A stretch of DNA of 64,000 bases from an uncultured Collinsella sp. Lineage in GTDB: Bacteria > Actinomycetota > Coriobacteriia > Coriobacteriales > Coriobacteriaceae. Every line of letters begins with the position of its first letter. Position 1 is the first letter of the stretch. Positions 45,744 through 51,351 of this stretch are shown here, one piece after another. The notes under the pieces were generated by a model. It ran no database searches. It saw only the letters and a program-made list of their open reading frames with translations, and was not told the origin of the DNA. The stretch lies in contig UQNH01000001.1 in the NCBI GenBank assembly GCA_900542365.1, positions 33,130-97,129 on the forward strand, read 5' to 3'. The translations under genes and the position numbers were made by a program.

Positions 45744-46490
45744 CTAGAAAAGGAAGCCGATGGAGATAAGGGCGATACTGACGATAAGTACGGCGATATC
45801 CAGGCCTTTGATGGGGTAGCGCTTATACGAACTCGCACGCGTGCGCAGGTAGAAGCCGCGCTGCTCGGCGGCAAGCGCGGTGGCATCGGTCTTGCCCACG
45901 CTCGAAATAAGCAGTGGCACGCACAGCGGCAGCATGAGCTTGAGTTTCTTGACGGGATTCTTAGTGTCGTATTCTACGCCGCGTGCAGTCTGCGCCTCCA
46001 TGATGGCGTTCATTTCCTGGCCAAATACCGGCACAAAGCGCAGCGCCGTGGTAAAGGTGAAGGCATAGCGATATGGCACGTGCAGCACCTCGACGCAGGC
46101 GTTGGCGAGGTCGTTGAGCTTGGTCACCATAAGCATGAGGATGAGCGGCAGCGCCACGCCCAACAGACGCAGGCAGGCCTTTGTTCCGGTGATGAGGCCC
46201 TCGTCGGTGACAAAGCCCCACACCACGTTGCCATCGCGCATAAAGGCCAGCTGGAGCACCAGCATGATAAGCGCGAGCGGAATCAGCAACTTGAGTAGCG
46301 AGAACAGACGGTTGACGACGCCGGCATAGGCACCCAGTACAAGGGTGAGTGCCAAAAAGCCCAGCAGCGCCACGTAGGTGTCGGACAAGAAGATGCCGAT
46401 GATGATGGCGGCGGCGAGGCCCAGTTTGATGACGGGGTTCAGGCGATGCAGCAGCGTATCGCCCGGCATGTAGTCGATGACGTTAACCAC
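45744..46490 (-). CDS. ecfT: ECF transporter transmembrane (T) component
   Basis: CbiQ/EcfT-like polytopic protein with the ARG...R motifs (EAQTARGVEY, LAAEQRGF). GTG-46490 overlaps the ecfA stop codon. ATG-46469 is an alternative start. Confidence 0.75.
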   Translation of the reverse strand: MVNVIDYMPGDTLLHRLNPVIKLGLAAAIIIGIFLSDTYVALLGFLALTLVLGAYAGVVNRLFSLLKLLIPLALIMLVLQLAFMRDGNVVWGFVTDEGLITGTKACLRLLGVALPLILMLMVTKLNDLANACVEVLHVPYRYAFTFTTALRFVPVFGQEMNAIMEAQTARGVEYDTKNPVKKLKLMLPLCVPLLISSVGKTDATALAAEQRGFYLRTRASSYKRYPIKGLDIAVLIVSIALISIGFLF

Positions 46491-48234
46491 GGCGGTCCAT
46501 CTCCTCGGTAATACGAACGATATCGGTGACCTCACTCACCTGCGCAAAGGCAGGCGAGACGGAGGATGCCAGGCGGCGTGAGAGTTCAATGACCTGGGGC
46601 GGCTCGACGTAGGCACGCTGCATGAGTTCGATGTTCGAAAACAGCTCGTGCGTGCGGCCGCGGTCGAGGATGCGGCCGTTTGCCATTACCACAATGCGCT
46701 CGGCAAAATCCGAAACGACTTCCATATCGTGGCAGACCATGATAACGGCGCAACCGCGCTCGGCCATGGTGCGCACCGTTTCCATGACGGTCATGCACTC
46801 GCGGTAATCAAGGCCGCTCGTGGGCTCGTCGAGCACGACGATCTTGGGCTCTACGACCACGACAGAGGCGAGTGCCACCATCTGGCGCTGACCGCGCGAA
46901 AGCGAGAAAGGTGCCTCATCGGCAGGCAGGCCAAAGCGGTCGATGACGAGCTGGGCGCGACGCAGAGCCTCGGCGCGGTCCATGCCGCCAAGCTCCAAGC
47001 CAAAGGCGACCTCGTCGAGCACGGTGTCCTTGCAGATCTGACGGTCAGGGTTTTGGAAGAGGGTTGCGACTTCGCGGGCGATACGGCTCGTGGGAACGGC
47101 TGCGGTATCCAGTCCCGTGACGCGCACGCTGCCTGAGGCGGGCTTAAGCAGGCCTGTGAGCAGCTTGGTGAGCGTGGTCTTGCCGGCACCGTTCTGGCCG
47201 ACGATGCCCACGAGCTCGCCGGGATAGAGGGTTAGGTTGAGGTCGTGGACGGCGGCGCCGCCATTGGGATAGGCAAACTCAACATGGTCGAAGGTGAGCA
47301 CGGGCTCGGCGTCCTTGGCGTGCGGGCGCAACGACGGTGCGTGCGGTGAGCCGGCGGGTGCCTGAATGTCGCTGCTTGCGTGTGCGGGGTCGACGATGCC
47401 CGTAATCAGGCGCTCGGCCTCATCGACATCCAAGCAAGGGGTACCGCTTACCAGGCCATCGGCCTGGAGGCTATTGAAGATACGCGTGACGCGAGGGCAG
47501 TCGACGCCGATGGCACGGAGCTCGTCGGTATGCGCGAAGACCTCGTGTGGCTCGCCCTGCAGCGCGATTTCGCCCTGGTTGAGCACGAGCACGCGGTTGC
47601 AGTACTCCGAGAGCAGGGCGACCTTTTGCTCAACGACGACGATGGTGATTCCAAGTGCGCGGTTTGCCTCACGTAGCGTCTCGAAGACCAACGTGGAGCT
47701 GGCGGGGTCGAGTGCCGCGGTGGGCTCGTCGAGAACCAAGACGCGCGGACGCATAGCGAGGATGGCAGCGATGGCTACCTTTTGCTTCTGTCCGCCCGAG
47801 AGGGTGGCGATCTCGCGGTCGCGCAGGTCGCTGATGCCGACGGTCTCGAGGGTTTCGGTGACGCGCTGCTCAATCTGGTCGTGCGGCACGCCAAAGTTCT
47901 CGAGGCCAAAGGGCATCTCATCCTCAACCACGGAGGCGACCATCTGCGTGTCGATGTCTTGCAGCACGCTGCCGACGATCTGCGACACATCGGTGAGCGA
48001 AACTTCACAGGTGTCGTTGCCGTCGACAGTGACGGAGCCAAAGAACGTGCCGGTGTAATGGTGGGGTACGGCTCCCGACAGACAGGCGGCAAGTGTAGAT
48101 TTGCCGGCGCCCGAAGGACCGATAATGCCAATAAAATCTCCCCTGTTCACGCCGAGCGAGATATGCTTAAGCACCTGCTCGGTCTGCGTGCCATAGGAGA
48201 ACGAGACATCGTCGACGTTGATGATCGTTTCCAT
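46483..48234 (-). CDS. Fused double ATPase of an ECF transporter (EcfA1-EcfA2)
   Basis: Two Walker A sites (GPSGAGKST, GQNGAGKTT), two signature motifs (LSGGQKQ, LSRGQRQ); 583 aa. Confidence 0.85.
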   Translation of the reverse strand: METIINVDDVSFSYGTQTEQVLKHISLGVNRGDFIGIIGPSGAGKSTLAACLSGAVPHHYTGTFFGSVTVDGNDTCEVSLTDVSQIVGSVLQDIDTQMVASVVEDEMPFGLENFGVPHDQIEQRVTETLETVGISDLRDREIATLSGGQKQKVAIAAILAMRPRVLVLDEPTAALDPASSTLVFETLREANRALGITIVVVEQKVALLSEYCNRVLVLNQGEIALQGEPHEVFAHTDELRAIGVDCPRVTRIFNSLQADGLVSGTPCLDVDEAERLITGIVDPAHASSDIQAPAGSPHAPSLRPHAKDAEPVLTFDHVEFAYPNGGAAVHDLNLTLYPGELVGIVGQNGAGKTTLTKLLTGLLKPASGSVRVTGLDTAAVPTSRIAREVATLFQNPDRQICKDTVLDEVAFGLELGGMDRAEALRRAQLVIDRFGLPADEAPFSLSRGQRQMVALASVVVVEPKIVVLDEPTSGLDYRECMTVMETVRTMAERGCAVIMVCHDMEVVSDFAERIVVMANGRILDRGRTHELFSNIELMQRAYVEPPQVIELSRRLASSVSPAFAQVSEVTDIVRITEEMDRRG

Positions 48235-48254
48235 GGATACCTTTCAGAGTCATC

Positions 48255-48294
48255 GGGGACGTTCTTACATGACTAGTCGTTTAAGAACGTCCCC
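48255..48294 (-). promoter_or_regulatory. Intercistronic 13-bp perfect hairpin between the S-component and ATPase genes
   Basis: GGGGACGTTCTTA / TAAGAACGTCCCC with a 14-nt loop that itself contains the palindrome GACTAGTC. No U-tract. Confidence 0.6.
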
Positions 48295-48340
48295 AAGAGC
48301 TAGTTGTTTGGGACAGTCTTTACCGATGGGGCACTGTGGG

Positions 48341-48913
48341 TTAGTTGAGCTTCAGGGCCTTCTGGATGGGCAGGTAGAGGGCGCCGACCAGGATGGCGTT
48401 AAAGACGGCGGTCATGGCGACAACGGGCAGCATGGCTGCGGCGAGCTCGCCCACCACGCCGAGCATGGCCATCTTGATGACCATGAAGATGACGCCCGAG
48501 ACAAAGGTGGTCACGAACGTTGCGACGATGGCGACAATAGGCTTAACCTGGCCGCCCTTGGTAGCAGCGTTGACAATGACAGCCATGAGCATGGCGGCAA
48601 TGCCCTCGGCGGCAAAATCGACAAACGGCGAGGTGGTGGTGATCTGGATCACGGCGGCCGAAATGAGGCCGATGACGAGCGCCTGGCCAATGTTGGGGCG
48701 AACGACCAAGATGGTGAGGCAGAAGGCCGAGATGATGAACTCGGGGCTGATCATGCCGCCCGAGATGCTGGAGATAGCCTTGCCGACGGTGAAGTTGAGA
48801 ATGAAGCCGGCAGCAAGCAGAATGGCGAGCAGGACAAGGGCACGGATATCGAGTTTGCCACGGTCGGCGGTCTGGACGGTGCGGGGCTGGGCGGCGGTGG
48901 TGTTCTGAGACAT
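48341..48913 (-). CDS. trpP: ECF S component, TrpP-like (probable tryptophan transporter)
   Basis: 190 aa, 6 TM segments. Segment-wise resemblance to B. subtilis TrpP as recalled (PEFIISAFCLTILVV, ALVIGLISAAVIQITT, LPVVAMTAVFNAIL). A WWW leader ORF lies upstream. Confidence 0.6.
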   Translation of the reverse strand: MSQNTTAAQPRTVQTADRGKLDIRALVLLAILLAAGFILNFTVGKAISSISGGMISPEFIISAFCLTILVVRPNIGQALVIGLISAAVIQITTTSPFVDFAAEGIAAMLMAVIVNAATKGGQVKPIVAIVATFVTTFVSGVIFMVIKMAMLGVVGELAAAMLPVVAMTAVFNAILVGALYLPIQKALKLN

Positions 48914-48990
48914 GGTGAAAGTCCTTTCAAAAAGGGGAGTGCAAGAAAAAACGGAGGCGCGTGATGCGAATGCGATCGGGCTCGAGATAG

Positions 48991-49020
48991 AAAAAGGCCC
49001 CCGGTCGAAACCGGAGGCCT
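48991..49020 (-). terminator. Attenuator terminator in the trpP leader
   Basis: RNA GGCCUCCGG-UUUCGA-CCGGGGGCC (9 bp, 1 G-U pair) followed by UUUUU. Lies between the leader ORF and the trpP start. Confidence 0.65.
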
Positions 49021-49057
49021 TCCAATCACCTAGAGCGCAAAAACAGGCGTGAGGGAC

Positions 49058-49126
49058 TCACCGTCGACCGATCGTATTCGCATCACGCCACCACCAGTTG
49101 TTGAGAGACGTCATCGAGTTCTTCAT
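49058..49126 (-). CDS. Trp-rich leader peptide (22 aa), absent from the ORF track
   Basis: AAGGAG is followed by 8 nt and then ATG. Translation MKNSMTSLNNWWWRDANTIGRR. The three consecutive TGG codons are at 49088-49096. Confidence 0.7.
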   Translation of the reverse strand: MKNSMTSLNNWWWRDANTIGRR

Positions 49127-49318
49127 GTTGGTGGCTCCTTTCGTGATGCCGTGGCTCGGTAGCACCTGATTGCTGTTGCGCTGCACTATAGCACAGCGAT
49201 ATATGTGCAGGGAAATCTTTTTTGAAAAGATTTCAGCGGCGTTTCCCGCCGGTCAGATGACGGGCTAGGAGGGCAAGGCCGCTCACGCTGTCTCGCCCTC
49301 CTTTAGAACGTGAGGGCC

Positions 49319-51124
49319 TTAGGCCTTCTTGCGTCGATAGATCACGAAGCCGCAGACACCGATGATGACGACGGCGCCAACAGCCATGGCGGCCATGTTG
49401 TTGCCCTCGGACTTCTCCTCGGGGGCCTCTTCCTTCTCGACCTCGGGCTCGGCTACGTCCTCATCGGAGAGCGCCTCGTCGGCGTAGGTGATGGACTCGA
49501 CCAGGCAGTCGTTGTCGGCATCGTAGTCACTCGGGACGAACTTCTCGGAGAAGTCGCCCTTCTTGAGGTAATCGCGCATCTCCTCGAGCATGGCCTTGCA
49601 CTTGACGTAGGTGTTCTTGGTCGCGGCCTTGCCAGCCTTGTTGGCCAGGGCGGTGCGGGCCTCGGTGCCCTCGGCAGCCTGCATGGCCTCGTCGACGGTC
49701 AGGTTCTGCTCGATGAGCTCCTTCTGCAGAGCGTCGAGATAGGCGCGGACGCCGGTGGCGCAGTTGTCGCGGTTCTCCTCGGCGAGCGTGTTGATGTCCA
49801 TGAGGACGTAATTGATGGAGTTCTTGGGCTCCTCGTTGTTCACGACGTCTTCCTCTTCACAGTGATCGAAGGAGACATCCTGATCGCTGAAGTAGGGGCT
49901 GACCTCGGTGAGCAGTGCGGAGTAGAAGGGAATAGCGACGGAGAACTCGGCGTTGGAGAGCATCTCCCACTGGATGGTCGCGATCTCGGGGTCCATGCCC
50001 TGACGGATCTGGAAGGTGTGGATCTCGGTGTTGCGGTTGGAGCCGATGGCATAGGCACCGTCGGTGTTGGCGTTGAGGCCGGCGACATTCTCGCCACGAG
50101 TGGCAAAGCTGCGGATCATCTCGAAGGTGTTCCAGTCGGACTTGCCGGGCTGGAAGAACAGCGGCTGCATCTCGTGGACCAGGGCGCCGGTCGTGGCACG
50201 AGCATCTTCGCGCTCGTCCTTAACGATCTCGTAGTCGGTGCCCTCGGCAAGCGGAGCCATGAAGTAATCGCGGCCCTGGATATAGCGAGACCAAGAATGC
50301 ATGGCCTGCTCGCTAATTTCCTCACCGTAGGTCTGGGCAACGTCGAACTGGCCGTCCTCGAAGTACTTGGCAAAGCCCTTTTCTTCGGGCATGGTCTGAA
50401 TGTCCTTGGAGTGGAGGCAGTTCTCGGTATCGTCGAGGTTGACCTTGTAGTTAAGGTTGCCGATGTTGGGGTTGACCGAGGCGATGTCGTCGGTGAGCTT
50501 CATGGCAATCCACTGATGGCCAGAAAGTCCGGCGAACAGCCAGGTCTCGTTGTTGTCGGCGATGATGACCTGGTCGTTGGTGCAGATGCCCTGCTCGTCG
50601 ACCAGGCTACCGAGGAGCTCGACGCCCTCGCGGGCCGTGGCGCTCTCGCCCAGGATAACGCTGGCGTAATTGTACTCACCGATGCCGGTCTCCTCGGTAA
50701 TGGGGTCGGCCTCCTCAGCCTTCTCGTTGTAGGAGGTGCTCAGCGTGGCAGAGCAGGAGACACCCTTCTCGTTGATGCCAGCCTCGGAATAAGCGTCATA
50801 GCGATCTTCCCACTGAGAGGGGTTGTCGCGAACGAAGGTGTAGCGGTAGGTCGCGCCCTTGGACTTGTACTCAAAGCCTGATTCGAGCGAGCTATACTCG
50901 CTGCCGTCCTTGTGCGCAGGCTCAATGCCAAAGTGCTTGATATAGCGCGGGCTAAAGTCCTCTGCGCGGCCGTAGTACGTGTTGCCGTCCGCCGTGAGTT
51001 TGCTGCCCATGTAGATCTGGGTGCAAGCGAGCGCCGAGGTCGGCATGGCCATAATGGCCGCTGCTCCGAATGCAAGGCTGCAGCCAAGCTTCTTGAGCGT
51101 GTTGACAGGATGAGTAAACCTCAT
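49319..51124 (-). CDS. C69-family dipeptidase with a signal peptide and an acidic linker + TM anchor at the C-terminus
   Basis: The signal ends ...TSALA, followed by the nucleophile Cys in CTQIYMGSKLTADGNTYYGRAEDF. C-terminus ...EKEEAPEEKSEGNNMAAMAVGAVVIIGVCGFVIYRRKKA. RBS GGGAGGG. Confidence 0.8.
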   Translation of the reverse strand: MRFTHPVNTLKKLGCSLAFGAAAIMAMPTSALACTQIYMGSKLTADGNTYYGRAEDFSPRYIKHFGIEPAHKDGSEYSSLESGFEYKSKGATYRYTFVRDNPSQWEDRYDAYSEAGINEKGVSCSATLSTSYNEKAEEADPITEETGIGEYNYASVILGESATAREGVELLGSLVDEQGICTNDQVIIADNNETWLFAGLSGHQWIAMKLTDDIASVNPNIGNLNYKVNLDDTENCLHSKDIQTMPEEKGFAKYFEDGQFDVAQTYGEEISEQAMHSWSRYIQGRDYFMAPLAEGTDYEIVKDEREDARATTGALVHEMQPLFFQPGKSDWNTFEMIRSFATRGENVAGLNANTDGAYAIGSNRNTEIHTFQIRQGMDPEIATIQWEMLSNAEFSVAIPFYSALLTEVSPYFSDQDVSFDHCEEEDVVNNEEPKNSINYVLMDINTLAEENRDNCATGVRAYLDALQKELIEQNLTVDEAMQAAEGTEARTALANKAGKAATKNTYVKCKAMLEEMRDYLKKGDFSEKFVPSDYDADNDCLVESITYADEALSDEDVAEPEVEKEEAPEEKSEGNNMAAMAVGAVVIIGVCGFVIYRRKKA

Positions 51125-51351
51125 AATCCCTCCCAACTGTTGAGACCCCGCAAAGCTATGTGGAATCTCAGCTAATAAATACATCTATTAGCCTATAGGA
51201 AGTCTAAAGAGTATTCATCTATTTCGATGAAATACTCGATGAGCGTCCTAAAATATGCGATGAACGGATAAGAATACTCATTATGTAGCTTTACTTAAAT
51301 AAAGGCACCCTGCAATTACTCTACCTGAATAAAGCACCTTGCACGGGGCGC

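Follow-up and report, generated by a model that had tools for sequence, protein, structure and literature searches.

In the trpL leader of enterobacteria (Rfam family RF00513), which governs tryptophan biosynthetic genes, a short open reading frame (ORF) preceded by a Shine–Dalgarno sequence (SD) carries two tandem Trp codons, and four RNA segments pair either as 1:2 and 3:4, the latter an intrinsic terminator with a U tract, or as 2:3; segment 2 is covered once a ribosome has reached the stop codon. Here we describe a locus for which this same organization is predicted on the minus strand of a 64,000-nucleotide stretch of an uncultured Collinsella sp. (contig UQNH01000001.1; this whole stretch is hereafter the window), where a leader ORF with three consecutive Trp codons (WWW) stands ahead of a gene for a TrpP-like S component of an energy-coupling factor (ECF) transporter. 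From its sequence, the locus is very probably a classical leader-peptide transcription attenuator that senses charged tRNA-Trp and controls a TrpP-like ECF tryptophan importer. Compared with trpL, it has one more Trp codon, its stop codon lies inside segment 2, its target is an importer instead of biosynthetic genes, and its hosts are Gram-positive, high-GC Coriobacteriia. The two leaders have no sequence or covariance-model similarity (no RF00513 match at E ≤ 10).

Genes of the trpP type are regulated by other means in Firmicutes. The trpP gene (yhaG) of Bacillus subtilis is regulated by TRAP, and trpP-like genes in Firmicutes are under the control of Trp T-boxes. These genes belong to the same family (PF17099) and obey the same logic, with more importer at limiting tryptophan, but the sensor there is TRAP on a (G/U)AG array or uncharged tRNA bound by a T-box, whereas here it would be the translating ribosome. 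An earlier note on this DNA had proposed that the arrangement is distinct from both, and this view held. A cmscan of positions 48000-50000 against Rfam 15 at E ≤ 10 returned only sub-threshold chance matches, with no leader or riboswitch family and no match to the T-box model RF00230, and positions 48900-49200 contain no run of at least three (G/U)AG repeats (TRAP sites consist of 9-11 triplets spaced by 2-3 nt). The tnaC leader peptide of the Escherichia coli tnaCAB operon, which includes the tryptophan permease gene tnaB, is also Trp-related; there, the nascent chain senses free tryptophan, blocks Rho-dependent termination and induces at high tryptophan, whereas the locus described here has an intrinsic terminator and tandem UGG codons, and its induction is expected at low tryptophan. 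Regarding transporters, Vitreschak and colleagues reportedly predicted, in 2004, leader-peptide attenuators upstream of histidine transporter genes, a precedent for importer control that differs from the present case in amino acid, transporter family and taxa. The protein called 'TrpP' in the literature on Corynebacterium glutamicum is presumably unrelated.

Within the same phylum, attenuators with double or triple UGG codons and GC-rich terminators followed by poly-U have been described in Corynebacterium and Streptomyces; they lie ahead of operons for Trp biosynthesis and, in a single instance, of trpS2, and no transporters or Coriobacteriia were reported among them (Seliverstov et al. 2005, PMC1262725). 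Short patterns common to the antiterminator and terminator strands are a further descriptive likeness to the present locus. In the literature searched, we found no leader peptide ahead of trpP or of an ECF transporter, and no attenuator in Coriobacteriia. Judged from sequence, the locus is an undescribed instance of a known mechanism, a Trp attenuator on an ECF importer in predicted Trp auxotrophs. Such a textbook mechanism would surprise a specialist only modestly, and by analogy the attenuation of an importer is not new in principle.

The Trp-codon leader and its helices

The earlier note had pointed out the leader ORF (MKNSMTSLNNWWWRDANTIGRR), its SD AAGGAG with an 8-nt spacer, the Trp codons at 49096-49088 and the box TATAGT, and all of them are present when the minus strand is read (Table 1). 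Transcription is expected to start ~7 nt past the extended −10 element, at ~49178, and AAGGAG lies ~52 nt beyond this element. The −35 of the leader promoter is weak or uncertain, which is why a consensus promoter scan missed the TATAGT box. In Olsenella-, Enorma- and other lineages, the leader is preceded at an equal distance by TATAGT or TATTGT, and GGAG with its 8-nt spacer is kept in relatives. The Trp triplet had also been considered very unlikely by chance, an argument that failed on composition: TGGTGGTGG is found once in the 64-kb window, dinucleotide shuffling predicts 0.55 occurrences, and at least one copy was present in 41 of 100 shuffled sequences. The triplet is non-random because of its placement and its conservation at every orthologous locus, not because of composition.

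To document this conservation, a genome collection was scanned with the S component. The best 80 of ~550 flagged loci were all Collinsella, and their proteins, from uncultured Collinsella and C. aerofaciens, are 95-100% identical to the S component of the window. Every Collinsella locus whose upstream DNA was long enough (78/78) carried the WWW leader ORF; WWW never varied, and the rest of the ORF differed slightly. More divergent relatives were sampled by individual protein look-ups and by a DNA-pattern scan of metagenomes. The same leader was found at protein-anchored loci of Olsenella uli, Enorma, Atopobium minutum and six further lineages, whose TrpP proteins are 45-81% identical; examples of their leader peptides are MSRIARTSMNWWWRSLSAVGRS, MFQSMNNNWWWRNSISLGRW, MTKTYLNNNWWWHNLVSVGRS, MRATGTQQWWWNNLSFSGQR and MTSSTVQFVLTNWWWRMHIAIGQS. 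The metagenome scan yielded more than 100 extra leaders, and a TrpP-like gene followed on the same strand in all those with enough downstream sequence (104/104). Conservation of the WWW ORF in relatives, on which the earlier proposal depended, is therefore borne out. Between lineages, the N-terminal half of the leader peptide varies in length and sequence, and the spacing that follows is fixed: WWW, six codons, G(R/Q), one codon and the stop. Conservation of nucleotides peaks over the last four codons, includes third codon positions and does not end at the stop, which points to a constraint acting on the RNA and not on the peptide.

Two hairpins followed by U runs had been placed downstream of the Trp codons by the earlier note, and they correspond to the region of helix P1 (1:2), followed by U5, and to terminator T1 (3:4), whose U run (U5) occupies 48995-48991. 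T1, a strong GC-rich hairpin, was found in 26 of 26 representative lineages, with energies of −12 to −29 kcal/mol. In an alignment fitted with a covariance model (CM), 9 of its 14 pairs changed on both sides and the proportion of paired cells was 93%, compared with 37-62% in slid registers; an alignment made without fitting gave 8 such pairs of the 14. Of the five inner pairs of P1, four changed on both sides (for instance, U-A in 25 sequences and C-G in 19), and this helix reads GGCGCGA:UCGCGCC, GGCGCAG:CUGCGCC or GUGGCAUG:CAUGCCAC in other lineages. When P1 and T1 were taken together in the unfitted MAFFT alignment of 25 lineages, 89.6% of the cells were paired, against 41-60% in slid registers, and 12 pairs changed on both sides, against a shuffle mean of 5.7. 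The CM-fitted alignment of 48 sequences gave 93.3% against 37-62%, and 13 pairs against a mean of 5.9. None of 500 shuffles reached the observed count in either alignment. A smaller hairpin, GUGAG:CUCAC, is an alternative to GGCGUGA:UCACGCC ahead of U5. A U-rich run after P1 is also present in several relatives and may be a pause site that synchronises ribosome and polymerase.

The antiterminator (2:3) was located by an all-against-all column scan and RNAduplex. The conserved stretch UCGGUCGA-NNG-UGA-GUCY is complementary to the 5′ arm of T1, its loop and the first 4 nt of its 3′ arm, and segment 2 is near-invariant at the nucleotide level, third codon positions and post-stop bases included. 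The bases after segment 2 (UCGCG or UCAC) pair just upstream of the terminator, and one long hairpin results. Across lineages, 87-89% of the cells of this pairing are complementary, against 30-62% in slid registers, and the duplex has −18 to −31 kcal/mol (median z-score −2.9 against dinucleotide shuffles). When a stalled ribosome was mimicked by folding the RNA from 22 nt past the first Trp codon to the terminator loop, the antiterminator hairpin was the minimum free energy (MFE) structure in all 18 lineages listed of the 26 (−18 to −29.5 kcal/mol). With a ribosome at the stop codon (mask to 12 nt past the stop), this hairpin was lost, the 5′ arm of T1 was free and the top of the terminator nucleated. 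In folds with no ribosome, P1 together with an inner hairpin that sequesters GGUCGA was the MFE structure in about half of the lineages listed, the window included. A smaller antiterminator formed by CGGUCGA and the terminator loop alone (6-8 bp) was also considered and rejected as too weak against T1; the pairing spans the stop and the whole 5′ arm.

Table 1. Features of the leader and of the genes downstream of it, in window coordinates.
Feature	Position	Strand	Details
Extended −10 promoter TGcTATAGT	49185..49193	-	TATAGT at 49190-49185, TG at 49193-49192
5′ untranslated region (UTR) segment GCAUCACG	49142..49149	-	8 nt, 100% complementary to CGUGAUGC (49087-49080), just 3′ of the Trp codons
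SD AAGGAG of the leader ORF	49135..49140	-	8-nt spacer to ATG 49126-49124
SD-to-AUG spacer GCCACCAACA	49126..49135	-	10 nt, 90% complementary to the Trp codons (UGGUGGUGGC)
Leader ORF MKNSMTSLNNWWWRDANTIGRR*	49058..49126	-	22 codons + stop TGA 49060-49058
UGG UGG UGG, proposed ribosome stall site	49088..49096	-	Sequence reading; invariant in protein-anchored relatives
Segment 1, GGCGUGA, 5′ strand of P1 (1:2)	49083..49089	-	Overlaps third Trp codon, reaches next two codons
Segment 2, antiterminator 5′ strand UCGGUCGACGGUGAGUCCC	49053..49071	-	Last four codons, stop 49060-49058, 5 nt beyond
Segment 2b, UCACGCC, 3′ strand of P1	49046..49052	-	Just after stop; followed by U5 49043-49039
Predicted antiterminator hairpin (2:3)	49002..49070	-	−25.3 kcal/mol; MFE of WWW-masked nascent RNA before the T1 3′ arm
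Intrinsic terminator T1 (3:4), GAAGGCCUCCGGU-UUCG-ACCGGGGGCCUUU, then UUCUAUCU	48991..49022	-	13-bp stem 49022-48993, −23 kcal/mol
Segment A′	48959..48979	-	21 nt, 95% complementary to 49088-49068; helix brackets T1
CCUCCG + U6 after A′	48946..48957	-	U run 48951-48946
trpP ribosome-binding site and start codon	48911..48927	-	AAAGGA 48927-48922, start codon 48913-48911; sequence reading
TrpP-like ECF S component	48341..48913	-	190 aa; Pfam PF17099
Fused EcfA-A′ ATPase	46483..48234	-	TIGR04520 458 bits (cutoff 315), TIGR04521 435 bits (cutoff 330)
EcfT	45744..46535	-	PF02361 93 bits (cutoff 25)

According to the proposed mechanism, transcription would begin a few bases after TATAGT and a ribosome would start on the 22-codon leader. 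With plentiful tryptophan, the ribosome would pass WWW, reach the UGA and cover segment 2, which would let the 5′ and 3′ arms of T1 pair, and the polymerase would stop at the U run. If no ribosome were present, segment 1 and UCACGCC would form P1, segment 2 would be held in a closed loop and T1 would form as well. Under scarcity of charged tRNA-Trp, the ribosome would stall on WWW and mask segment 1, leaving segment 2 exposed; this segment would then capture the emerging 5′ arm and loop of T1 before the 3′ arm appears, so that T1 would be blocked and transcription would read through into trpP. The ribosome positions, the kinetic folding order, the response to tryptophan and the substrate of the importer are what we infer from these features. 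The ribosome-mediated attenuator suggested by the earlier note is supported by an SD-preceded ORF with WWW, a terminator, a covarying 1:2 helix and an alternative hairpin. Collinsella and Olsenella make up 41.6% of the predicted Trp-auxotrophic Actinobacteria (PMC10665431), and an importer induced by Trp starvation would make sense in such hosts.

Points against attenuation and competing explanations

Several observations weigh against this proposal. The MFE structure of the complete leader keeps T1 under every ribosome mask; the antiterminator must therefore be kinetic, and the model needs a co-transcriptional folding order. The antiterminator is also the MFE structure without a ribosome in about half of the lineages listed, and in the lineage of the window itself (Collinsella) it is weakest and not more stable than shuffles (z-score −0.5 to −1.4; −1.1 to −1.4 for the duplex). 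Double-sided changes in the antiterminator were not above shuffles in any of three alignments. This can be ascribed to columns that are nearly invariant and to the Collinsella-type arm, which is 1 nt shorter, with a shifted register. Two cases of compensation are anecdotal: in L088 the stop is UAA in place of UGA and the terminator arm reads GGGCUU in place of GGGCUC, and in L214 GGUCAG replaces GGUCGA and the facing loop is GUGACC. The antiterminator is thus well supported in our models by conserved complementarity and folding, not proven by covariation. Regarding the survey of relatives, the metagenome pattern forced WWW, GGTCGA and GTRAGTC, and only the protein-anchored loci are unbiased at these positions. 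Finally, the sole Pfam match of the S component, PF17099 (residues 24-187 on profile positions 3-168 of 169), scored 26.0 bits against a gathering cutoff of 27.2, and NCBIfam gave this protein no match; 15 of 15 aligned homologues match only TrpP, and many close homologues carry a precomputed PF17099 match.

Among the alternatives, it is improbable that the locus acts mainly through translation or mRNA stability, with stalling that would remodel the 5′ UTR and expose the trpP ribosome-binding site or alter decay, T1 being of minor importance. Such control would account for the 21-nt helix A:A′ (−44 kcal/mol, z-score −6.4), found in 79 of 79 Collinsella leaders (78 loci and the window), for the location of the trpP SD AAAGG within a small CCUUU-UUG-AAAGG hairpin in the MFE structure, and for the pairing of the CUCC after A′ with GGAG of the leader SD that is seen in the full-length MFE structure. 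However, A:A′ and the features downstream of it occur only in the Collinsella/Enorma clade, whereas all lineages examined have the WWW leader and T1, and T1, which covaries, lacks none of the features of an intrinsic terminator.

It is very improbable that the leader is an independent gene for a WWW micropeptide or a small RNA, with T1 constitutive and trpP transcribed from its own promoter past T1. T1 is very strong and always present in the full-length MFE structure, the spacer between T1 and trpP (75-190 nt in relatives) leaves room for a promoter, and terminated attenuator RNAs can act in trans elsewhere, as is reported for rnTrpL (PMC6614838). Nevertheless, a consensus scan detected no promoter-like site on the minus strand between T1 and trpP, this spacer is not conserved between lineages, and the leader was never found apart from a TrpP-like gene (197/197). 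The N-terminus of the peptide is unconstrained, and the conserved complementarity between the stop region and the 5′ arm of T1 would lack purpose in a gene of this kind.

Hardly credible is nascent-peptide sensing like that of TnaC, in which the WWW peptide would bind free tryptophan in the exit tunnel, arrest at the stop and cause termination at high tryptophan: a distance of 9 codons from WWW to the stop in all lineages, a stop within the 5′ strand of the antiterminator, where a held ribosome would favour T1, and a direction of regulation that would still suit an importer all agree with it, but the residues after WWW are poorly conserved (RDANTIGRR, RNSISLGRW, HNLVSVGRS, NNLSFSGQR, RMHIAIGQS), the peptides have no TnaC-like Asp or Pro pattern, and three tandem Trp codons are a signature of sensors of tRNA charging (PMC1262725). 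What is conserved after WWW are nucleotides, rare codons and bases past the stop included, and not residues; RNA pairing therefore explains the fixed spacing between WWW and the stop.

Further pairings in the leader RNA

The long-range helix A:A′ recurs with different, matching sequences in L170, Enorma (L215) and L117, and in a weaker form in L196 (z-score −2.3) and L105 (z-score −1.3). It is absent in most of the Olsenella-like lineages examined and is restricted to the Collinsella/Enorma clade. A′ pairs with the stretch that directly follows the Trp codons, where the predicted footprint of a stalled ribosome would end on its 3′ side. This helix, which the earlier note had not mentioned, is followed by CCUCCG and U6. 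A U run of at least 5 was found after A′ in 14 of 79 Collinsella leaders, and most of the 79 read CCUCCGCUUUCUUCUC; A:A′ with U6 was considered as a second terminator, an unlikely reading given that most leaders have an interrupted U run. It is doubtful that the attenuator of Collinsella and Enorma carries a second ribosome-sensing layer through A:A′ and CCUCC. Such a layer could be a fail-safe nested terminator, whose 5′ arm would be available only without a stalled ribosome; it could be a lock on leader translation in completed mRNAs, sparing ribosomes from being trapped at WWW under starvation; and A:A′ could also be a processing site for RNase III.

Two other pairings involve the start of the leader. 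The 5′ UTR segment GCAUCACG is paired with CGUGAUGC in the MFE structure of the whole leader. The spacer between SD and AUG varies by lineage (CGCCAG, UGCCAG, CCAUCGCCA and others), and its complementarity to the UGG repeats is kept in most of them, with a pairing energy of −10 to −20 kcal/mol and a median z-score of −1.2. With this moderate support, the spacer probably occludes the ribosome-binding site or the Trp codons of the leader while the latter is untranslated. The E. coli trpL leader also sequesters its ribosome-binding site by pairing with a distal segment.

Two palindromes were observed near the promoter. An imperfect one, CGCTG..CTATAG..CAGCG, is centred on the −10 box (49179-49198), and L084, L170 and L215 also contain GTGCTATAGTGC; a protein might bind at this palindrome, which overlaps the promoter. 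The other, a perfect 10-bp palindrome, GAAATCTTTT-CAA-AAAAGATTTC, is located just upstream of the promoter (49212-49234) and follows the terminator-like hairpin that ends the upstream peptidase gene. Over 15 nt, it shows 87% complementarity to the ribosome-binding region of trpP (48919-48933). An operator and a portion of a bidirectional terminator are possible readings of this palindrome, as is chance.

The probable target gene and its neighbours

Tryptophan as the substrate of the importer is supported indirectly, by the WWW leader and by the predicted auxotrophy of the hosts. If the proposed attenuator is real, leader-peptide attenuation would extend from biosynthetic operons to an ECF-type importer, and the element would be present in Coriobacteriia, where none had been described before and none is in Rfam. 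The leader would also be independent regulatory evidence that this family of S components, annotated as 'hypothetical protein' in most records, handles tryptophan. The importer would then be the likely route by which Collinsella and Olsenella, two genera that are abundant in the gut and predicted to be auxotrophic for Trp, acquire tryptophan, and this would bear on how gut organisms compete for tryptophan and its metabolites. The covariance models obtained in this analysis could be used to annotate the leader element across metagenomes.

The earlier note had described a trpP-ecfA-ecfT operon. The genes ecfA and ecfT do follow trpP, but co-regulation of the ECF module with trpP, although likely, is uncertain from the sequence, because hairpins are present in the gap between trpP and ecfA in the window and in Enorma, among others. 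In the window, this gap (48235-48340) contains a perfect 13-bp stem, GGGGACGTTCTTA / TAAGAACGTCCCC, without a U tract. A hairpin of ~110 nt (−50 kcal/mol) occupies the gap in most other Collinsella (L006, L025 and others) and resembles a repeat or an insertion of the miniature inverted-repeat transposable element (MITE) type, and in Enorma (L215, 3071-3190) the gap contains a terminator-like hairpin followed by U4. These sequences suggest differential expression or processing of the S component and the ECF module. The EcfT ORF as called overlaps the end of ecfA by 53 nt (46483-46535), and the overlap in relatives is 8 nt; the true EcfT start is therefore probably further downstream.

In many relatives, the first TrpP gene is immediately followed by a TrpP-like paralogue (36-48% identical) behind the same leader, as in L084 (3139-3684), L090 (3242-3811), L092 (2383-2940) and others, and two TrpP genes are also found in L217 (186-1578); the window has one TrpP. 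The low-GC L217 (1-996) was the only relative among those examined in which the WWW leader is absent. Its TrpP, present as two tandem paralogues, is 45% identical to the TrpP of L133 used as query, and the AT-rich region upstream contains repeated AATCTAAAC(C)AATAACAATCT motifs, which suggests that TrpP is under a different mode of control in this lineage.

The gene upstream of the leader (49319-51184, minus strand) encodes a peptidase C69 (dipeptidase family) of 621 aa; its C-terminal tail is hydrophobic and ends in RRKKA, which makes membrane anchoring of this peptidase probable. A terminator-like hairpin lies after this gene, at 49251-49234.

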